Positions 4,492 to 24,387 of a stretch of DNA of 33,650 nucleotides are shown here, piece after piece (the stretch's first letter is position 1; each line of letters starts with the position of its first letter). Below the pieces are notes generated by a model. The model was not told the origin of the DNA, did no database searches, and saw nothing but the letters and a program-made list of their open reading frames with translations. Position numbers and translations under genes: made by a program. The stretch is from a virus. The stretch spans positions 1 through 33,650 of IMG/VR virus record IMGVR_UViG_3300037320_000111; one strand, 5' to 3'.

Positions 4492-7272
4492 TTAATTTAA
4501 TATTATGGTTTGCGTTTTAATTACCGGTAAACCAACAAATGTTCCCGGCGCATTTATAAATTCTGCCGTGTTTATTTTAACTGTCGCGCTCACCGTTCCC
4601 GTTCCCCCTAACGAATCACCAGCCAAAGCACTTGTTTTTAAAATGAATTCAACCACATCCGAAGCAATGAAATTCAATGTTAAAGGATAGGTGATTTGTC
4701 CTGGTCCTGTAGTCAAGGACTCGATTTGCGCCCCGTTCTTGTAAATTTCGCAGCGCACATCACCTTGATCACCCACGGTGGTATCTACCATATTAAGCAA
4801 ATCCACAACCCCTTTAAAATTCAAAATAAACGAAGGCTGTAATGCCGGCGAAATATCCAATTTGTATTTTTTTATCACAGAAACATCCCAACCCAATTGC
4901 GGTGCTAAATCTTCTATGAAATCCACAGTCACGGTATAATCTTTAATTCTTATTATATTCAATGAATCTTCGGCCGCAGCGCCGTCGTTATCCGTGACTT
5001 GGATTTTATAAGTATAGAAATCTTCTGTAAGTCCTTGCAATGTCGTTGTCAAAGTGGATGGCGAATCAATAGAATCACCAAAACCACCGTACGTTTTTGT
5101 CCAAAATTGCGAAGCAATATATCCATCCGGATCAAAAGCCGTTGCCACCAAAGATGCCGTTGTTTGTGTATTAGTCAAATAAATATCATCGCCCGACAAA
5201 ACTATTGGTGGGATATTATCATCACCAGGCGTTGTGGCTGCCGCATCTTTATAAACAGAACGCCCCAAAGTCAAAGTGGTTTTGTTTTCATCTAAATTCC
5301 AAGAAGCATTCAGCACATGAAATTCTTTCACATACTGATAATGAAAATTAATTATATCATTAAATTTCACCGCATTCAAAGCCGTTAAATCTATTTTTTC
5401 AGCCGCATCATTAAAGATTCGCCTGTAAATATTTGCAATGGTTTTTGGATAGCTTGTGTTTTCTATTTTATAAATAGCATCTGTCCATTGCGTCCAATTG
5501 CCGCGTGCGCTCAATACATCATCCACCGCATATTTCTTAACTATAAAACTACCAGAACCATGCAGCACATCCGTTTCCACCACCATTTGTTCGCCATCAT
5601 TGAAATTGTAATGCACCGCCAAAACAGTCACTAAAGCACCCGCTTTGTAAACTGTATATTTGTTTTGATTAATCAAATTTGCACCGGTCAATTGTACTAC
5701 TGCATATTTCTTTAAATCCAATTCAAACCCATATAAAATAGGAACCTCAATTTCATTAAAAAACGAGGATGATTCCTTTAATTTTGCTAATCGAAAACCT
5801 CTTGAAGCACCAGATTGATCATTGCCATAAGTCAAAACCAATTCTTTATCAATAGTGAAATCACCATTAATCAAATCAGTCACCACTTCTTCTTCTTTAA
5901 ATTTAATTACCGAAATTTCAATTTTTGACAATTCAATGCCCAATATTTTATGCGTGAATACGCTTCCAGGTGCGTTATAAATACGAAAATCCAACAACCC
6001 TTCTTCGGTAAAAATATGCTCAATTGCCACTTGCGCTTCTTCGCTTTTTTCGAAAATCACTTTTTCTTGATCTGCTACCGTTCCACCAAAGTTGGAATAT
6101 AACACCGCACCATTAAAAATAATTTCGTATTTAAAAGGATTCTGCCATAATGTCAAATCTGTTGGTGGCTCTATAGAATCATTAAACTTTCTGATTTTAA
6201 ATTGTAAATCAAATTTTATCTTTTGTGATTTGGTAACAAATACCTTTTCTTTTAATGAAACAAAGCGCGTATCATCCTGGACCGGTACATTTTGCAAACT
6301 ACCATCAAAATAATATTGGTTGTACACCACGCAGCTATAATCCGGCTTTTCACACCATGCATACAAACCACCATTTGCCATCCAACTTGATGCATGTATT
6401 TTTCCCAAAACACCGGTTACAATCGCCCATCCTTCATTTACTTCTTCGCTCAAAGTTTTTGGCAAAGAAGGTTCTGTTTTTTCATGTGAAACCGTGATTT
6501 CATTATATGGTGGAATCATTGTGATTGTAGGTGTCAACAATGGCGTGATCGCTTTTAATAAACGATCATAATTCAACGAGCCAAAAAGACTGCCCGCAGT
6601 ATCATATATTTTATAATTCACTTGCCTTTTTTGGCGCATGTTAATCCCTTCAATGTACCATCTGTTATCCGCTTGATAACACACGCACAACGTGTCATGC
6701 AACAAAGTATCTAAAATACTGTATGCATCTTGTTTTTTGCCGTTTTCGGCAAATGTTGCCGTGTCGATATAAATGGAATGCCAATCTTTATTGGTGTAGT
6801 TTTCAATGGCCGCCGCAAAATACAAGTCCATTTCCAAGCCGGTCAATTTTAAGATTTCCACATAAATAGCAATCAAAGACTTTTCACGGGAATAAAATTC
6901 ATCTGAAAGGAATTTCCCTTTCAATCTTCCCAATCCATCAGTGGCACCAAACGAAACAAAAAACGCCCCGTTCTTGTACGGCTCTGCGTATAAATCTGGA
7001 AGGATATATCCTTGCCACACGACAGCATCATCCACACTGTTTTTAATCAACAATTTGAATTGGTGTTCATCGCCTGTGAAATACCCAATGAAGGCCGCAT
7101 CAGCCGCCGTAGTGGTCAACATATCAAATCGAAAATTACTCGCCACAATCGTCATTTCATCCTTAGAATCACCACCGGACCATTCCAATACAATACCGGA
7201 TGCCGATGCCTGTTCAATTACTAATTTAGTAAGCGGCGAAGTCGTGTCGATTATGTCGATGTAATAACTCAT
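4492..7272 (-). CDS. Distal tail / baseplate-like protein (Dit/Tal position) with Ig/PKD-like domain
   Basis: 926 aa. The start overlaps the tape-measure stop (TAATG). Ig/PKD-like stretch PPIVLSGDDIYL..ATAFDPDGYIASQFW. Call is based mainly on position. Confidence 0.55.
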   Translation of the reverse strand: MSYYIDIIDTTSPLTKLVIEQASASGIVLEWSGGDSKDEMTIVASNFRFDMLTTTAADAAFIGYFTGDEHQFKLLIKNSVDDAVVWQGYILPDLYAEPYKNGAFFVSFGATDGLGRLKGKFLSDEFYSREKSLIAIYVEILKLTGLEMDLYFAAAIENYTNKDWHSIYIDTATFAENGKKQDAYSILDTLLHDTLCVCYQADNRWYIEGINMRQKRQVNYKIYDTAGSLFGSLNYDRLLKAITPLLTPTITMIPPYNEITVSHEKTEPSLPKTLSEEVNEGWAIVTGVLGKIHASSWMANGGLYAWCEKPDYSCVVYNQYYFDGSLQNVPVQDDTRFVSLKEKVFVTKSQKIKFDLQFKIRKFNDSIEPPTDLTLWQNPFKYEIIFNGAVLYSNFGGTVADQEKVIFEKSEEAQVAIEHIFTEEGLLDFRIYNAPGSVFTHKILGIELSKIEISVIKFKEEEVVTDLINGDFTIDKELVLTYGNDQSGASRGFRLAKLKESSSFFNEIEVPILYGFELDLKKYAVVQLTGANLINQNKYTVYKAGALVTVLAVHYNFNDGEQMVVETDVLHGSGSFIVKKYAVDDVLSARGNWTQWTDAIYKIENTSYPKTIANIYRRIFNDAAEKIDLTALNAVKFNDIINFHYQYVKEFHVLNASWNLDENKTTLTLGRSVYKDAAATTPGDDNIPPIVLSGDDIYLTNTQTTASLVATAFDPDGYIASQFWTKTYGGFGDSIDSPSTLTTTLQGLTEDFYTYKIQVTDNDGAAAEDSLNIIRIKDYTVTVDFIEDLAPQLGWDVSVIKKYKLDISPALQPSFILNFKGVVDLLNMVDTTVGDQGDVRCEIYKNGAQIESLTTGPGQITYPLTLNFIASDVVEFILKTSALAGDSLGGTGTVSATVKINTAEFINAPGTFVGLPVIKTQTIILN

Positions 7273-14809: not shown

Positions 14810-16012
14810 TTATTTCGTGTTATTTTCTATTTTTCCCGCCGCGTTGGCGATGCTTATTGTTTGCATGTTTACCGGCCTAAGCGGTTCGTCTAATCCATCA
14901 ATTGGATTCATATCTTCCAAGGCCCTGACTTCATTTGGCGAAAAAACAGAAGCATAAATCATGTCTTTGTAATACGCTGATCTTGCTGCCAAATCACCAC
15001 GCAATAAAAATTTCTCGTTTAGCTTTACGTAATACGTTAGCTTTTCTTTATCCGTGAATATCTTTCGCGCCAATTCCTGTTCTACTCTTGAAATCCAAGG
15101 CAACAAACTGTCTTGCACATGTTCAATCGCCATTTGCTGCATGCTTGAATAAGCTGCATTTGAATTGTCTTTTAATTTTGAAGGATTGATATTTAACCAA
15201 CGCGCCACCTCGATTACGCCATTTTTGTTGGTTTCTAAGAATTGCGCTTCGGCCGGTGTGATGGTGATGGATTTGTATTTCATTCCACTGTCCAACATTG
15301 GCACTTTGAAGGCGTTTTTTTGTGACATTTTAGACACAAATCCATCTTCAATTGCTTTTTTGTTTGGGCCTGTAACATCCTGATCACTTTCAATCACACC
15401 ATAACCCAAGCCACGATCTTTGTAAACTGTGGAAGCATAATCCTGTGCTTCTAAGGAAACACCAATTTGCTTTGCAGCGAATGTCACAATAGGAATTCCC
15501 ACAATGCCATCATAGGACAAACCTTTGAAATGCAACATATCATCACTATCAATCAATTTTCCTTTATAGGTATAATATAATTTATCACCCACGCGCTTCA
15601 CCTGGACATCGCCATGATCTAAGAAGATCCACGATTCTTGTGCGCCGGTGTAGCTGTTGCGGTTTATTTTTGCGAAGGCATTTCCTTTTAGAATTACTGA
15701 AATCATCACCACTTTCCAAAAATCGAAAGAAGTCATCATTTCATTGGGTGCCACCGCCATCAAATAATTGACCGGATGTTCCGGCATGGCAAAGCGGTTT
15801 TCCCCTTCTTTGCGAAAAATTCCCTTTGGCAGCTTCGCAATATCATTTGATAATTGGTCCACGCCGTTATAAAATGCCGATAGTGTCATGGCAGACTTTG
15901 AAGTCACTGCCGCAGAACCACCACCAAAAAAAGGCATATCAAAGAAGGATTCATTGCCCGAAGCGGTGCTTCTTGTTGCAAATAAATTTGAAAATGCGCG
16001 ATCTATTGACAT
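14810..16012 (-). CDS. Portal protein, HK97 family
   Basis: 400 aa. Its stop is adjacent to the protease start. Size and position are typical. Confidence 0.85.
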   Translation of the reverse strand: MSIDRAFSNLFATRSTASGNESFFDMPFFGGGSAAVTSKSAMTLSAFYNGVDQLSNDIAKLPKGIFRKEGENRFAMPEHPVNYLMAVAPNEMMTSFDFWKVVMISVILKGNAFAKINRNSYTGAQESWIFLDHGDVQVKRVGDKLYYTYKGKLIDSDDMLHFKGLSYDGIVGIPIVTFAAKQIGVSLEAQDYASTVYKDRGLGYGVIESDQDVTGPNKKAIEDGFVSKMSQKNAFKVPMLDSGMKYKSITITPAEAQFLETNKNGVIEVARWLNINPSKLKDNSNAAYSSMQQMAIEHVQDSLLPWISRVEQELARKIFTDKEKLTYYVKLNEKFLLRGDLAARSAYYKDMIYASVFSPNEVRALEDMNPIDGLDEPLRPVNMQTISIANAAGKIENNTK

Positions 16013-16030
16013 AGTTGTGTAATTTATTTG

Positions 16031-16079
16031 GTAAAATTACATAGCTAGTTTAGGTTAGCCGGTTAAAGATTTTAACTTT
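16031..16079 (-). promoter_or_regulatory. Late promoter-like module, copy 2
   Basis: Minus strand reads AAAGTTAAAATCTTTAACC GGCTAACCTAAACTAGCTATG TAATTTTAC. 22 nt (GCCGGTTAAAGATTTTAACTTT) are identical to copy 1. Lies upstream of the portal ATG (16012). Confidence 0.6.
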
Positions 16080-16080
16080 T

Positions 16081-16128
16081 AAACATAAAAAAACCCAAAG
16101 CCGTGATGGCGTTGGGTTTTATATGTTT
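16081..16128 (-). terminator. Long intrinsic terminator hairpin
   Basis: Stems aaaacccaa/ttgggtttt and gcc/ggc, plus outer aaacata/tatgttt arms, with a T-run on the transcribed strand. Confidence 0.6.
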
Positions 16129-16176
16129 AAACAACGATAATTAAGATTATCGCGTTATTAGATGTTATTACGTATA

Positions 16177-16302
16177 ATTAGCTTTTAAAATACCATTCAT
16201 TGTTCAACTTCTCAAAGTTGTATTTTAACTTTTCGATCATTACTGTCACGCTTTCAGCACCGTAGGTTTTAGGTTCTGGAAGGCGGCGAATGGCTGCCAT
16301 CA
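16177..16302 (-). CDS. Possible small ORF (41 aa)
   Basis: Hand translation: MMAAIRRLPEPKTYGAESVTVMIEKLKYNFEKLNNEWYFKS. The only sizeable minus-strand ORF in the gap before the terminator. Confidence 0.3.
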
Positions 16303-19063: not shown

Positions 19064-19069
19064 AAAAGG

Positions 19070-19092
19070 AAACCCGCTGTGGTAGCGGGTTT
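19070..19092 (-). terminator. Intrinsic terminator after the recombinase gene
   Basis: Perfect 9-bp stem aaacccgct/agcgggttt with a 5-nt loop, flanked by T/A runs. Confidence 0.7.
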
Positions 19093-19096
19093 TTAA

Positions 19097-19930
19097 TTAT
19101 ATTCTTATCGCGTTAAGTGGTGAGTTTATTTTGCTGATGATATTGTTTGAAATCTGAACATAGCACATTGTCGTTTTTACATTGCTGTGGCCCGCTAACT
19201 TCTGGACCACATTAATATCACAACCGGCTTCGACTAAGTGGGTGAAGCTATTGTGCCGCATCTGATGTGTCCAAACTCGTTTGTTTATTCCGGCTTTCTT
19301 CCCTAATTGTTTGATCACCGCGCCCACACTTGTAGCTGTGTATTGATCACAATTTTGACCGCTTAAAATAAAAATCTTGGTTTGATACTCGTGATAATAC
19401 TTTTCTAATAAAGGAACCAAAGAAGCGGCCAACATCACTTGCCGGTCTTTGTTCCCTTTGCCTTTTAAGATGTTGATGATCATCCTGGAACGATCAATAT
19501 TTTCCCATTTTAAATTCAGCAATTCAGACACCCGCAAACCGCACGAATAAAGCAACGCCAATATCACTTTGTGTTTTAGATTTTCGCAAACATCGAACAT
19601 CTTTTGCACTTCGGCTTGGGATAGGACAATAGGCAGCTTTTTGTCGGATCGCGGATATTCAATATTTTTAAATTTTAACGGCTGTTTCCCGGTGAATTTA
19701 TAAAACAGTTTTACGGCAGAAATTCGATGTTTGCGGCCATTTATACTGTTTGCCAACAACAACCATTGTTTTATTTTTTGCTCTGAAATTTCCGAAGGTT
19801 TTGTGGCGATATTATTAAAATACTCTAAAAAACATTTTACCTGGCTGCAATAGTTTAAGATCGTGTTTTCGGCGTAGTTTTTCAACCTCAAATCTTCAGA
19901 ATACATTTCAACATACTTTGTGATATTCAT
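19097..19930 (-). CDS. XerC/XerD-type tyrosine recombinase (second recombinase of the phage)
   Basis: 277 aa. SAM-like N-domain. Catalytic signature GLRVSEL (R), HQMRHNSFTH (H-x-x-R), GHSNVKTT (H) and CYVQI (Y). Confidence 0.85.
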   Translation of the reverse strand: MNITKYVEMYSEDLRLKNYAENTILNYCSQVKCFLEYFNNIATKPSEISEQKIKQWLLLANSINGRKHRISAVKLFYKFTGKQPLKFKNIEYPRSDKKLPIVLSQAEVQKMFDVCENLKHKVILALLYSCGLRVSELLNLKWENIDRSRMIINILKGKGNKDRQVMLAASLVPLLEKYYHEYQTKIFILSGQNCDQYTATSVGAVIKQLGKKAGINKRVWTHQMRHNSFTHLVEAGCDINVVQKLAGHSNVKTTMCYVQISNNIISKINSPLNAIRI

Positions 19931-19945
19931 GGCGTTAAATTTTAA

Positions 19946-19991
19946 AAAGTTATTTCGGAATGAAGATAAGCAACATTTCCGAAATAACTTT
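19946..19991 (-). terminator. Strong hairpin (15-bp perfect stem, 16-nt loop) 15 nt upstream of the recombinase ATG
   Basis: aaagttatttcggaa (19946..19960) pairs with ttccgaaataacttt (19977..19991), with a T-rich tail on the minus strand. Could be a terminator of the 151-aa gene or a regulatory/recombinase-related structure. Confidence 0.5.
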
Positions 19992-20042
19992 AGTTAAGTA
20001 TTGATTTTATTAGGTATTAATAGAAGTAAATACATATAGTAG

Positions 20043-20498
20043 TTAGCAAACAGTTTCAGAAACCCTTGTCGCTTCGATTATATATTCTTCCAAAAGTGAT
20101 TGAGTTTTTGAAATATGGTATCTATCATTCCATTTAAAGCAATCAACTGTTTTTTCTTCTCCTTGAAATTGACATCTTACTTTATATTGATTTTCCTTGT
20201 CAAAACGGGCGTTAAATAATAAACAATCTTCATTTCTATTTTCAAGTCCGTGTTCCATTCCGTAACATCTATTTACCCAATCAAACAATTTTTTACGTTC
20301 ATTTTCTGTCAAAGCATGATAATGTTTATTTATAACATCGTCCCAAAACATAGCTCTTGCAATTGGGCGTGGAGGAATACACGCTTCGACTAAAAAACTG
20401 AACTCAAAAAAATCAATATTAAACCGATTTGCTAACATCGGTTTTGACTTATTGCCGTTTTGGTTTTGAACGGAATTATTATTTTGTTCTTCAATCAT
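20043..20498 (-). CDS. Hypothetical protein (151 aa), orphan
   Basis: ATG ORF. Asn/Gln-rich N-terminal tail, then a core FSFLVEACIPPRPIARAMFWDDVINKHYHALTENERKKLFDWV. No family recognised. Confidence 0.6.
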   Translation of the reverse strand: MIEEQNNNSVQNQNGNKSKPMLANRFNIDFFEFSFLVEACIPPRPIARAMFWDDVINKHYHALTENERKKLFDWVNRCYGMEHGLENRNEDCLLFNARFDKENQYKVRCQFQGEEKTVDCFKWNDRYHISKTQSLLEEYIIEATRVSETVC

Positions 20499-20558
20499 TT
20501 GTCATTAATTTAAAGTTGGTCTTGTGTTTTATCGGCAACAAGACAAAGCCGAATACCG

Positions 20559-21074
20559 TTACAAGACATCATTTAACAGATTCAAAGCAAAAACTTCAAA
20601 TACGTTCCCAACTCTATTTTTTGGGAAAAGTTGGTTAACAAAGTTTTCATTTTCTTTTTTGTATACTTCAAACATTCTTGACCGTTCTTTTTTTGAATGT
20701 TTTATATTAGCAATTCTATCACACAATTTTACAAAAGTTGCATATTCTACTTCTCTAATTCCATCGTAATACTTATCATTCGCTCTTTCTTTTCTATTCT
20801 TACCTTTTTCATTGGATAAAGCAAAAACAATTTCTGCAACTTTTGTATTTGATACTTCTTTCACATCATTGTAAGTTAGCCTACAATCTTCTATTGTATC
20901 GTGAAGCCAACAAGCTGACAAAACTATTTCTCTATCTTTTTCGGGAATTGTATTGATAAATTTATTCGCCACATCAACTACCATTTTTAAATGAAATGAG
21001 TAAGAATAAACGCCATATTTATGATTGACGTTATTGTGTGACCTAATTGCAAACTCTTTAATAAGTTCTAACAT
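20559..21074 (-). CDS. HD-domain hydrolase of the Mesh1/SpoT (p)ppGpp-hydrolase type (small alarmone hydrolase-like)
   Basis: Aligns by eye to the Mesh1/SpoT hydrolase blocks: FAIRSHNNVNHKYGVYSYSFHL (A..H....[RK]..PY..H), CWLHDTIEDC (LLHDxxED), VAEIVFALSNEK and FVKLCDRIANI (KxADxLxN). The track start at 21230 is a TTG with 52 extra residues; the first ATG is at 21074 (MLELIKEF). Confidence 0.7.
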   Translation of the reverse strand: MLELIKEFAIRSHNNVNHKYGVYSYSFHLKMVVDVANKFINTIPEKDREIVLSACWLHDTIEDCRLTYNDVKEVSNTKVAEIVFALSNEKGKNRKERANDKYYDGIREVEYATFVKLCDRIANIKHSKKERSRMFEVYKKENENFVNQLFPKNRVGNVFEVFALNLLNDVL

Positions 21075-21226
21075 AATGTTTAGTATAATAACCGTCTTGT
21101 AACACTCGTTTTGTGCTATTACGGATTTGTTGGTTAATTCATGTTTATTTTGCCCGTAGGCGTTTATTTTTAGTTGAAAATTCTCGGTTCGCAAGTCCGT
21201 AACAGACACAAAGCGAGGGGACGTTG

Positions 21227-22021
21227 TCAAAAAGGCAATTCATTCAAACTTTTCACCCTTTTATACCCCACATTATAGCGTTGATTGTGCGAAGCATCAA
21301 ATAAATACGTACAAATACCGGCATTGTTTAATTCAACAAAGTTTTCAAAGCGATCATCCACATAAATATCAATACCAGATGCTTTCGCCACTTCCACTTT
21401 GCTTTCACCAAGGCCAATGCTGTACACCGGCACAGCCGGAAATCCATTGTTGTGCAACCATTCTTCGGTCCAGGATGCCGGAATGCTGCGGCTTGTGATG
21501 TAGCAATGCGGTTCGAAAGGAATTTCGCTTGGTTTTATCTTTGCCGGGATCGACAACCAAAAATCTTTGTCATCCTTCAAAAGTTCAAACTTTGCGTTGA
21601 TGTAGCGGTCGAAGTTCCATGCATCCGGCACATCTTGTTGGTGGTGCGCGGTCCAATGCTGCACCCACCCGGCCAACACTTCATCAATGTCCAATCCTAT
21701 TTTCGGGCGTTTTAAATATTTATGTGTGCGGTTATCACCTTGCGGGTAAATTTTATAATATTCTGTTAGGAATCCCGCGTTGCACATTACGTGCGCCGTA
21801 TGCAGCAATCCCGTTTCCTGGTCGTAATCTTCACCGGCTTCAAAAGCGGCGATGTGTCTTTTCATCGATGCCAATACGGTGGTCCACTTCATGCCCTTTT
21901 CCCAATTGCGTTCCGCATATTTGTTGGCTCCTAATGTCAACACCTTTGCATATTGATCTTGTGCAAATTGCGGGACCAGATCATGGCGCGTTTTTCCGTC
22001 GTTGTATCTTAATCCTTCCAT
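21227..22021 (-). CDS. Fusion: DUF5664/MazZ-like dNTP diphosphohydrolase N-domain + HAD-type 5'(3')-deoxyribonucleotidase (NT5C-like)
   Basis: N-terminal region RYNDGKTRHDLVP..LTLGANKYAERNWEKG..MKRHIAAFEAGEDYDQETGLLHTAHVMCNAGFL resembles the dATP/dGTP diphosphohydrolase N-terminal family as I recall it. The C-terminal half has HAD motifs: DIDEV (DxDxV), ITSRS, a Lys in ESKVEVAK, and YVDDRFEN. The ATG lies 1 nt after the terS stop. Confidence 0.6.
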   Translation of the reverse strand: MEGLRYNDGKTRHDLVPQFAQDQYAKVLTLGANKYAERNWEKGMKWTTVLASMKRHIAAFEAGEDYDQETGLLHTAHVMCNAGFLTEYYKIYPQGDNRTHKYLKRPKIGLDIDEVLAGWVQHWTAHHQQDVPDAWNFDRYINAKFELLKDDKDFWLSIPAKIKPSEIPFEPHCYITSRSIPASWTEEWLHNNGFPAVPVYSIGLGESKVEVAKASGIDIYVDDRFENFVELNNAGICTYLFDASHNQRYNVGYKRVKSLNELPF

Positions 22022-22022
22022 G

Positions 22023-22463
22023 TTAACCGTTTTTAGATTTCATTAATTCTTCAAACAAAGATGTTTGTGCGGGATCTGTTGTGGATTTCAATTCTTTGTC
22101 AGACTTAGGATCTAATCCAAATATTTTAAATTGTTTCATCAGAATATCAATGGCATCGTTTCTCAATGTTACTACAACCGAAATATTTTGCGCGCCGGTT
22201 TTAAATGTCTGGATGTACCCGGTTCCAAATTCCTTTGCATTTTTCTTTTCTATTTCGCGGCAAGCGAATTCAAATTGCGACATTCCCACCGCGTACACTT
22301 CCAACGCATTCAAGTAGTGATCTTGCAATCGGTCCTTCTTCGCCAGAATGTTTCCCATGAACATGTAATGCTTTTTAGATTCTTTAGATAAATACATTGG
22401 CGGCCGCGGACATTTTACTAAACCTTCTTTATCTTTCCCAATTGATACAATTTTCAAACCCAT
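22023..22463 (-). CDS. terS: Terminase small subunit (P27 family-like)
   Basis: 146 aa. Pattern LSKESKKHY..LQDHYLNALEVYAVGMSQFEFACREIEK..GYIQTFKTGAQNISV..IFGLDP. Downstream of the HNH gene. Confidence 0.75.
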   Translation of the reverse strand: MGLKIVSIGKDKEGLVKCPRPPMYLSKESKKHYMFMGNILAKKDRLQDHYLNALEVYAVGMSQFEFACREIEKKNAKEFGTGYIQTFKTGAQNISVVVTLRNDAIDILMKQFKIFGLDPKSDKELKSTTDPAQTSLFEELMKSKNG

Positions 22464-22902: not shown

Positions 22903-24387
22903 TTAAAAAGCTATATCATTATCATTTTCGAATGCTTCAACAGGCGTGATCAAACGCAATGGCGGTTCGCTGTAGGTTGTATCATCGCTCATGTCATCAG
23001 CATCTTCGACATCCACAAACTTTGTTTTATCACCCACCCATTTTAAGTATACCGTGCCGGTTGATCCACCGCGATACTTTGCCAACACTATTTCAGTATT
23101 CGCCCCCAGATCCAATAGGTTTTGCAACGTGTAATCATTATCATCGTTATCCATTGGCAAGTTGTAGTATTCCGGTCTATAGATGAACTCTACAATGTCG
23201 GCATCTTGTTCAATCGATCCACAGTCTTTAATATCAGACAGATGCGGGCATTTGTTGTTTCCGTTTCGTTTCTCGCACTCTCTATTAACTTGAGCCAACA
23301 CAATCACCGGAATGTCCAATTCCTTTGCTAACTTCTTCAATCTTCTTGATATGGATGACAATTCATTTTCTCGACTTCCTTTCATCGTTCTATCACCCAT
23401 TAATTGTATGTAATCTATAATCAACAACTTAATGTCAAATTTGCGCTTCCATAGCTTTGCAGTGATAATCACATCGGTGATGTCAGCATTACCGCTATCA
23501 TCGATATACAAAGGATAATCCTTCATTCTGTTCGTGTGTGCTGATAACGTTGTGAAGTATTCCGGCTTTTCAAAGCCACTTTTAATCAATTGTTTTAGAT
23601 GAAAGTTAGTATCAATCGACACCGCGCGCGCCGTTAATTGATGCATCGACATTTCAAGCGATATAAACCCAACACCTTGCATTTGTTTGGCGTTAGCTAT
23701 AGCAGTCTTTAAAACCTTAGATGTCTTACCCATTCCGGGCCGTGCTGCCACAATAACCAGATCTTGATTCCTATATCCACCCGTGTATTTATTTAACCGC
23801 TGAAAGCCTGTATCAACACCAACCATTTTCACTTCATCTTTGTTAGCGGTCAAAAGTTCCACAGATCGTTTCAATTCTTCCAAGGCTGTAGGAAATGACA
23901 TTGTGGTTCTTCCCGTTTGCGTATAATCGATCACGTTGTCGATTTCTTTCTGCCAACGTGCTATCACCTCAAAGATGTCGTTTTCGTCGCTCTGCGCTAA
24001 TCCTATGACCTGTGACGAGAAGTTTATAATCATTCGTGCGATGAATTTTTGCAGAATAATCCTTGCATGGTATTCTGAATGCGCTGAAGATGCTATTTTT
24101 TGTGTTAAATCAATTAAAGCCATATCACCACCGGATTGATCATACAAAGACAATTTGCGTAGTTCAGCCGATACGGTCAACATGTCAATTGGATCACCCG
24201 CAGCATACAAAGATTGAATTGCCTTGAATATGCATTTGTTTGATTCTTTATAAAAAGTGTCCGGACTTCTTACAATCGCCATCACACCATCCAAGCCTTT
24301 GCTGTCAATCAACATCGCCCCCAACACCGCTTCTTCCATTTGAACGCTATGCGGCATCACGTTTTGTTTATTTATAGTATTTTGCAT
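22903..24387 (-). CDS. dnaB: Replicative DNA helicase DnaB
   Basis: 494 aa. N-terminal PHSVQMEEAVLGAMLID, Walker A ARPGMGKTS, and C-terminal RecA-like motifs (IIDYIQLM, LAQVNR). Confidence 0.9.
   Translation of the reverse strand: MQNTINKQNVMPHSVQMEEAVLGAMLIDSKGLDGVMAIVRSPDTFYKESNKCIFKAIQSLYAAGDPIDMLTVSAELRKLSLYDQSGGDMALIDLTQKIASSAHSEYHARIILQKFIARMIINFSSQVIGLAQSDENDIFEVIARWQKEIDNVIDYTQTGRTTMSFPTALEELKRSVELLTANKDEVKMVGVDTGFQRLNKYTGGYRNQDLVIVAARPGMGKTSKVLKTAIANAKQMQGVGFISLEMSMHQLTARAVSIDTNFHLKQLIKSGFEKPEYFTTLSAHTNRMKDYPLYIDDSGNADITDVIITAKLWKRKFDIKLLIIDYIQLMGDRTMKGSRENELSSISRRLKKLAKELDIPVIVLAQVNRECEKRNGNNKCPHLSDIKDCGSIEQDADIVEFIYRPEYYNLPMDNDDNDYTLQNLLDLGANTEIVLAKYRGGSTGTVYLKWVGDKTKFVDVEDADDMSDDTTYSEPPLRLITPVEAFENDNDIAF

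Follow-up and report, generated by a model that had tools for sequence, protein, structure and literature searches.

So far, most phage enzymes known to destroy nucleotides come from phages in which a DNA base is replaced, such as those with 2-aminoadenine (Z) genomes, with uracil (dU-DNA), or with hydroxymethyluracil (hmU-DNA). Two kinds of characterized enzyme are pertinent to the gene described here. Arthrobacter phage Wayne has a stand-alone DUF5664 protein that makes deoxynucleoside monophosphates (dNMPs) from dATP, dUTP, and dGTP, and cleavage of a deoxynucleoside triphosphate (dNTP) to dNMP and pyrophosphate (PPi) within its Pfam family, PF18909, is known only for this protein and for a fusion enzyme of Acinetobacter phage SH-Ab 15497 (PMC12884076). 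Phage PBS1 in turn uses a member of the NT5C family (PF06941), the dTMP phosphatase Dtm, to destroy dTMP (PMC12697855), and the deoxyribonucleotidases mdN and cdN share with Dtm the substrates dUMP and dTMP. Here, we analyze a 264-aa phage protein in which a DUF5664 domain and an NT5C-type HAD domain are joined in one chain. Its gene lies in IMG/VR record IMGVR_UViG_3300037320_000111, the whole 33,650-bp stretch of which was analyzed (the window) and which represents the complete genome of a virus, bounded by direct terminal repeats. We find that the protein belongs to a widespread phage fusion family, and we think it probable, judging from conserved sequence, predicted structure, and the measured activity of a relative, that it acts as an autonomous two-step hydrolase that takes dNTPs through dNMPs to deoxynucleosides.

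A widespread phage family with two domains

Searches with the whole protein gave a full-length match to the PHROG family phrog_37590 (residues 2 to 262 on profile positions 44 to 335 of 341). The E value of 2e-86 places the similarity far beyond chance; the PHROG annotation is function unknown. Full-length homologues in cultured phages were found in Leptolyngbya phage Lbo-JY46 (XAI97342.1; 56% identical), in Cellulophaga phages phi38:1 (gp014, YP_008241395.1), phi40:1, and Calle_1-3 (54%; the Calle copies are annotated "5' nucleotidase"), and in five Salinibacter phages, e.g., M8CC-19 gp32 (32 to 34%). A database clustered at 90% identity returned 1,950 matches of similar length. None of the best 120 fell below 69% identity or 97% coverage of the query, and JGI names some of them 5'(3')-deoxyribonucleotidase. 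An exhaustive search of metagenomic clusters built at 50% identity yielded 193 clusters at E <= 1e-30, most of which were full-length fusions, along with stand-alone N-terminal domains and stand-alone HAD halves. The fusion occurs in abundance, and with strong conservation, in phages from marine and other environments. Among species representatives of cellular genomes, a search limited to set patterns gave at least four full-length copies, all in metagenome-assembled genomes. NCBIfam contained no family for the fusion, and a literature search found no description of a DUF5664-HAD fusion and just two papers in which DUF5664 or PF18909 is named.

A preliminary description of the window had taken the activity of the fusion to be unusual for a phage. 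The architecture itself is not rare: with isolates and about 190 clusters, it is already a large phage family, of which the present protein is a member at most 80% identical to others. Architecturally, the family represents a new variant on two kinds of enzyme already known.

Predicted phosphatase in the C-terminal half

The C-terminal half is predicted to be an NT5C-type phosphatase with intact catalytic residues, because of its fold neighbors, the alignment of its HN motif, and its invariant motif residues. Foldseek ranked the deoxyribonucleotidase-like protein of S. epidermidis first (3bwv; E = 1.5e-6) and placed human and mouse mdN and cdN structures at ranks 3 to 10, with HAD folds filling the list. 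A profile built from the HAD halves aligned with 3bwv and mdN at motif I and at the C-terminal HN motif; against the PDB, the full-length and HAD profiles gave weak matches only, to these same two enzymes. The beta-alpha core was modeled with a predicted local distance difference test (pLDDT) score above 90. Across 31 HAD halves, D111, D113, Y174, R178, K208, D223, and N246 are invariant, and position 176 is T or S. The cap also keeps the aromatic residues W134, F154, and W155. The peptides and motifs quoted in the preliminary description proved to be correctly placed (DIDEV at 111 to 115, YITSR at 174 to 178, K208, and DD at 222 and 223), and its assignment of the domain to the NT5C type, with all four HAD motifs present, agrees with these results. 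NT5C was also the top Pfam family for 22 of the 31 HAD halves.

Predicted pyrophosphohydrolase in the N-terminal half

Membership of the N-terminal half in the DUF5664 family, claimed earlier from the sequence, was confirmed by PF18909 (dGTP_diPhyd_N, formerly DUF5664), which matched residues 3 to 98 on profile positions 4 to 99 of 99 (E = 2.3e-30; 104.9 bits against a cutoff of 27). The Wayne protein (ALY10775.1) aligned with residues 10 to 98 (37% identical over 89 aa; E = 8e-15) and keeps K34-Y35, N39-W40, R55-H56, D67, E69, and H74. Its published activity (PMC12884076) is the strongest evidence for the predicted chemistry of the N-domain. The same KY, NW, and RH pairs and D67, E69, and H74 are invariant or nearly so in 37 N-domains; the invariant set consists of K10, K34, Y35, N39, G43, R55, H56, and D67. 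Loop 63-69, together with H74 and H77, is likely the metal site of this domain, and the predicted pyrophosphohydrolase would probably be Mn or Mg dependent through these residues.

The all-alpha NTP pyrophosphohydrolase superfamily consists of oligomeric helical bundles and includes MazG, dimeric dUTPase, HisE, and AF0060. The N-domain was modeled at a pLDDT of 94, and its best solved structural neighbor in an exhaustive VIA-align scan was AF0060 (2p06; 82 of 88 residues aligned at a root mean square deviation of 4.4), which led the next structural row by 2.2 Z; its Z of 6.8 is under the level that VIA-align considers safe for helical bundles, so the likeness is only suggestive. SCOP places AF0060 in the all-alpha superfamily (PMC2238974). 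A homodimer model of the N-domain scored 0.75, a value that 20 of 30 solved pairs and 1 of 23 single chains attain, against 0.00 for the best control. Model runs had at least 93% of contacts in common, with a partner pLDDT of at least 82. The model supports an N-domain dimer, which would fit the oligomeric bundles of the superfamily.

The label "MazZ-like" in the preliminary description was right in one respect, in that the Pfam family is named after the DUF5664-DUF550 enzyme of SH-Ab 15497. It did not extend to MazG proper (PF03819), which gave no match at E <= 0.1, or to solved structures: searched by sequence against the PDB, neither the whole protein nor the N-domain profile matched any chain.

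One protein, with split and altered forms

An AF2 model of the fusion, made with 30 diverse homologues, had a mean pLDDT of 93.2, with dips at the linker and in the HAD cap. It contains two confidently folded domains, residues 3 to 98 and 107 to 262, as the two-domain build described earlier implies. The catalytic residues of both halves are invariant over 30 fusions that share 35 to 63% identity.

In Maribacter phage Panino (L013:3986-4837), the two domains are encoded by adjacent genes in the same frame, CDS0047 and CDS0048, which one in-frame stop codon parts at the linker; a new ATG follows two codons later. A true split, a recent nonsense mutation, or read-through could each explain this arrangement. 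Another homologue, P0126, has a tandem pair of DUF5664 copies ahead of the HAD domain. P0126 excepted, the N-terminal extensions of longer homologues matched no Pfam or PHROG family, and many of them may be start-codon artifacts.

A proposed route from dNTP to deoxynucleoside

In the reading that we favor as probable, the two domains would act in series. Both this serial reaction and the selective elimination of one nucleotide, put forward in the preliminary description, are inferences. The DUF5664 domain, as a dimer in or near the all-alpha NTP pyrophosphohydrolase superfamily, would cleave dNTP to dNMP and PPi, and the HAD domain would take the 5'-phosphate off the dNMP via an Asp111 phosphoenzyme, leaving deoxynucleoside and phosphate (Pi). 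Catalysis in the HAD half would use Asp111 as the nucleophile, Asp113 as the acid/base, Thr176, Lys208, and a Mg site at Asp222/Asp223. The target would be the deoxynucleotide pool that serves phage DNA replication. Removal of a nucleotide in this way would be irreversible, because nucleoside mono- and diphosphate kinases alone cannot rephosphorylate the product. Our first guess at the substrate, held weakly, is that the enzyme may be an irreversible dUTP-to-deoxyuridine sink, since uracil deoxynucleotides are the only substrates common to the characterized relatives of the two domains. The preliminary description had considered a nucleotide-destroying activity unusual for a phage; precedents exist, such as the PF06941 dTMP phosphatase of PBS1 (PMC12697855).

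Several observations weigh against this two-step scheme. In addition to the low Z of the AF0060 match, a Foldseek search of the N-domain against solved structures gave no match at E <= 0.001. In the other half, PF06941 scores only marginally around its cutoff of 24.8 bits (23.3 with the whole protein, 24.9 with the HAD half alone), and motif I is degenerate in two family members, reading NIEDI and QVEDV (P0192 and P0229), so that the predicted phosphatase step is dispensable in some lineages. Five carriers of the fusion gene, large phages, also encode a classical Dut, and the dUTP guess is thereby weakened. Finally, a general dNTP sink would harm the phage's own replication, because its replication genes look canonical and the complete genome yielded no DNA polymerase and no base- or nucleotide-modification genes.

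It is also conceivable, although we judge it rather unlikely, that both domains are active on separate tasks, the N-domain house-cleaning aberrant dNTPs and the HAD domain disposing of dNMPs from DNA breakdown. The 5'-deoxyribonucleotidase Dmp of phage T5 has such a dNMP disposal role. Stand-alone versions of each half are common, and the base preferences of the relatives differ, with purines and dUTP for DUF5664 and pyrimidine dNMPs for NT5C and PBS1 Dtm. Further support comes from the neighborhood: in three unrelated lineages (L011:9815-11125, L006:6811-7983, and L069:6037-7278), the fusion gene is directly adjoined, on either side, by a member of phrog_22398 (390 to 436 aa), which is without a Pfam domain and weakly similar to the "DNA repair exonuclease" families phrog_704 and phrog_284. 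However, the fusion has been kept in about 190 diverged clusters, the split halves of Panino stay adjacent, a classic sign of coupled function, and the present phage has no recognizable host-DNA-degrading nuclease beyond two HNH genes.

Genome of the phage and position of the gene

The window encodes an HK97-type siphovirus with genes for DnaB, a replication initiator, two HNH proteins, and the small and large terminase subunits (terS and terL), and with structural and lysis genes for portal, protease, capsid, a PKD tail protein, a holin, and an NlpC/P60 lysin. It is temperate and carries two tyrosine recombinase genes. The terS gene, identified by PF05119 and phrog_83, stands directly before the fusion gene, and the 1-nucleotide gap between the two genes, reported earlier, is exact in the sequence (TAA, one base, ATG). 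Also upheld was the statement that the gene is not part of a Z-genome cluster: a PF00709 search for PurZ (adenylosuccinate synthetase) found nothing at E <= 1 in the complete genome, and the control was found in 14 of 14 genomes. A megablast search with positions 19 to 25 kb of the window gave no match among GenBank phages. Promoter and terminator scans returned counts at the level of shuffled sequence and are uninformative for a phage of likely Bacteroidota type. Coordinates of the features are collected in Table 1.

Table 1. Features of the fusion gene and its product, with positions in the window
Feature	Residues	Position	Strand	Description	Basis
Fusion coding sequence	1-264	21227..22021	-	264 aa; ATG start; TGA stop codon 21227-21229	Open reading frame list, translation
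terS/fusion junction		22019..22025	-	terS TAA, 1 base, fusion ATG	Direct sequence read
DUF5664 / PF18909 domain	3-98	21728..22015	-	Three-helix all-alpha unit; predicted (d)NTP pyrophosphohydrolase	Pfam
Acidic loop GEDYDQE	63-69	21815..21835	-	D67 invariant; G63, D65, H74, and H77 at least 90% conserved	
Interdomain linker	99-106	21704..21727	-		pLDDT dip in AF2 model
NT5C-type HAD phosphatase domain (predicted)	107-262	21236..21703	-		Foldseek, Pfam, profile alignment
HAD motif I, DIDEV	111-115	21677..21691	-	Asp111, putative nucleophile; Asp113, putative acid/base; D111 and D113 invariant, V115 at least 90%	
HAD motif II, YITSR	174-178	21488..21502	-	T176; Y174 and R178 invariant	Alignments
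HAD motif III, Lys208	208	21398..21400	-	Invariant in 31 HAD halves	
HAD motif IV, Asp222-Asp223	222-223	21353..21358	-	D223 invariant; position 222 D or E	
Asn246 of "SHN" motif	246	21284..21286	-	Common to NT5C enzymes; invariant	Aligns with HN of 3bwv and mdN

The extreme C terminus of the fusion protein (...NELPF; 21230-21244, minus strand) and that of the phage's DnaB helicase (...NDNDIAF; gene at 22903-24387, minus strand) both recall the acidic C-terminal tip of single-stranded DNA-binding protein. Mimicry of that tip was rejected as a feature of the family: the ...NELPF ending is unique among 120 close homologues and is therefore probably due to chance.

An autonomous and mobile cargo gene

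In virulent phages, the gene is located in a replication or nucleotide module. In phi38:1, it has the primase-polymerase on one side and the DNA polymerase on the other; in Lbo-JY46, a DNA polymerase is nearby; in Salinibacter phage M8CC-19, it directly follows a family-B polymerase; and in Panino, its separate halves lie between primase/helicase and ribonucleotide reductase/polymerase. No fixed partner gene was found among 33 carrier records, and the fusion is autonomous in this sense. Candidate partners occurred as follows: Dut in 5, ThyX-like in 3 to 4, ThyA in 1, Tmk in 0, PolA in 5, and PolB in 4, counts that are descriptive only, as the records are often fragments and there was no background set. 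Clustering of the flanking open reading frames at 42 loci gave only two recurrent neighbors, phrog_22398 and an RlaP-type (PF10127) nucleotidyltransferase, neither of which is encoded by the present phage; the latter is adjacent or close to the fusion gene in four large-phage lineages (L004:8803-9903, L077:7061-7990, L078:9909-10967, and L074:14491-15705). As a separate observation, partial ThyX-like matches lay 0.1 to 3 kb from the fusion gene in three of the four carriers with a ThyX match (G028, 59142-59531; G018, 15760-16227; G015, 5996-6445).

Copies 75 to 80% identical to the present one were found in phages of 339 kb (a jumbo phage), 69 kb (GroEL encoding), and 36 kb (temperate) and in a T4-like contig. 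A comparison with a sister phage, G001 (terL 79%, DnaB 71%, and integrase 66% identical), was informative about the site. In the present phage, the terS-terL interval (19097-22021, minus strand) holds four cargo genes: the fusion gene, a small-alarmone-hydrolase-like HD gene, the orphan orf151, and a XerC/D-like tyrosine recombinase gene. The recombinase is kept at the same place in G001 (L129/L130; 65% identical), where the terS-to-recombinase slot carries a PAPS-reductase-like gene and a DNA methylase gene and no fusion; G001 has its fusion copy (78% identical) between the lysis genes and the integrase. The different cargo at this place indicates that the terS-terL gap is a variable cargo slot beside a second recombinase. 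The G+C content of the fusion gene is 44.8%, compared to 37.8% for the genome and 28.9% for the adjacent HD gene, a contrast that points to an island that is itself mosaic. Taken together, these findings describe a phage accessory gene that is self-contained and moves horizontally.

Two further features of the island were noted. The HD gene downstream of the fusion (20559-21074, minus strand) has an HDxxED motif and a match to phrog_990, and the best PDB matches of its product are 6yvc, 6z3n, and 6z3o ("Small Alarmone Hydrolase"; E about 4e-6). Its listed TTG start at 21230 is probably wrong: homologous sequence starts only at Met53 (ATG at 21074), about 150 nucleotides past the fusion gene. 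In the gap between the recombinase gene and terL (19068-19094, plus strand), a 12-bp GC-rich hairpin followed by a T run resembles a plus-strand terminator, antisense to the operon.

This mobility bears on a second alternative, in which the protein is a counter-defense "nucleotide eraser" that would convert a nucleotide made or sensed by a host defense into a nucleoside that can neither act nor be regenerated. In this quite improbable scenario, candidates for the substrate would be chain-terminating or deaminated (d)NTPs and dNMP danger signals such as m6-dAMP, which triggers PUA-Cal-HAD. Consistent with such a role, the gene is accessory cargo that moves between unrelated phages and occupies variable slots, it has a small-alarmone-hydrolase-like gene next door in this phage, and dNMP-sensing and dNTP-sink defenses exist (bioRxiv 10.64898/2026.01.15.699771). 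If true, it would explain why an apparently self-harming activity has been kept at 70 to 80% identity in unrelated phages. However, the HD gene shows no conserved link to the fusion: a homologue was found in only 1 of 32 other carriers, 11 kb from the fusion gene, in a search that used the HD protein itself as the query after a PF13328 scan had missed the phage's own HD gene. PADLOC gave no match for the fusion or its three island neighbors, and virulent phages hold the gene in replication modules rather than in early antidefense regions. In addition, the only biochemistry of the N-terminal domain concerns ordinary dNTPs (PMC12884076).

We give very little credence to a third alternative, in which the HAD domain would act on another phospho-substrate, such as DNA 3'-phosphate ends (as in T4 PNKP) or a phospho-sugar, and the N-domain would merely bind nucleotide. 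In its favor, sequence is a poor guide to HAD specificity, the phosphatase of T4 Pnkp is among the fold matches (E = 5e-3), and the Pfam score for NT5C is marginal. Set against these points, NT5C enzymes rank first in both fold and profile searches, the C-terminal HN motif and the cap aromatics W134, F154, and W155 are conserved, and the N-domain keeps its polar and acidic residues without exception, as a catalyst should. Least probable of all is a prophage-expressed dNTP sink that would block superinfecting phages in the manner of bacterial dNTP-depletion defenses. For it speak that the phage is temperate, with two tyrosine recombinase genes, that sister phages carry the gene at the lysis-integrase "moron" position, and that a two-enzyme dNTP sink is known defense logic (bioRxiv 10.64898/2026.01.15.699771). 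Against it, the gene here lies within a long late operon 1 nucleotide after terS, and the fusion is frequent among jumbo phages, isolates from lytic culture collections, and phages that encode replication modules. It is also nearly lacking from cellular genomes in the pattern-limited search, and again had no PADLOC match. None of these alternatives is favored by conserved context or by PADLOC.

Implications and comparison with known systems

The dNTP-to-nucleoside hydrolase proposed here is predicted in a small temperate phage that lacks base-replacement genes and a polymerase of its own. If the predicted chemistry holds, many ordinary phages with canonical DNA would irreversibly edit the host deoxynucleotide pool, with consequences for uracil exclusion, for dNTP-based immunity, and for the reading of "auxiliary metabolic genes" in viromes. 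The cultured Cellulophaga, Salinibacter, and Leptolyngbya phages offer easy test systems for the family, and the protein, soluble and 264 aa long, lends itself to clear point mutants.

Among described enzymes, the Wayne DUF5664 protein corresponds to the N-terminal half. Unlike the fusion, it is a stand-alone protein of 198 aa with an unrelated N-terminal extension and without a HAD domain, and its gene adjoins PurZ0, DutZ, and DmtZ in a 2-aminoadenine genome cluster, whereas the present phage has no PurZ. The "MazZ" of Acinetobacter phage SH-Ab 15497, a dATP/dGTP diphosphohydrolase, is alike in that DUF5664 is fused to a second nucleotide-hydrolase domain. The partner differs, being DUF550 and not HAD; its product therefore stops at dNMP, which feeds PurZ. 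The MazZ of cyanophage S-2L is of another kind, a MazG-type protein that shares no detectable sequence similarity with the fusion.

For the C-terminal half, the NT5C enzymes mdN, cdN, 3bwv, and PBS1 Dtm share the HAD core, the small helical cap, and the DxDxV, S/T, K, DD, and HN residues. They differ from the fusion in being single-domain proteins with 14 to 18% identity to it, and PBS1 Dtm acts in a dU-DNA pathway that is absent here. The PUA-Calcineurin-CE-HAD defense filament offers a functional analogy only, as two hydrolases in series that form a dNTP sink; it is bacterial, is built of unrelated domains, is ligand activated, and proceeds from dATP through dADP to dAMP, thus stopping at dNMP (bioRxiv 10.64898/2026.01.15.699771). 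The closest likeness is to the phrog_37590 proteins of Cellulophaga, Leptolyngbya, and Salinibacter phages, which have the same two-domain architecture over their full length. Those phages are larger, encode DNA polymerases of their own, and have the gene within the replication module, whereas here it is cargo between terS and terL.

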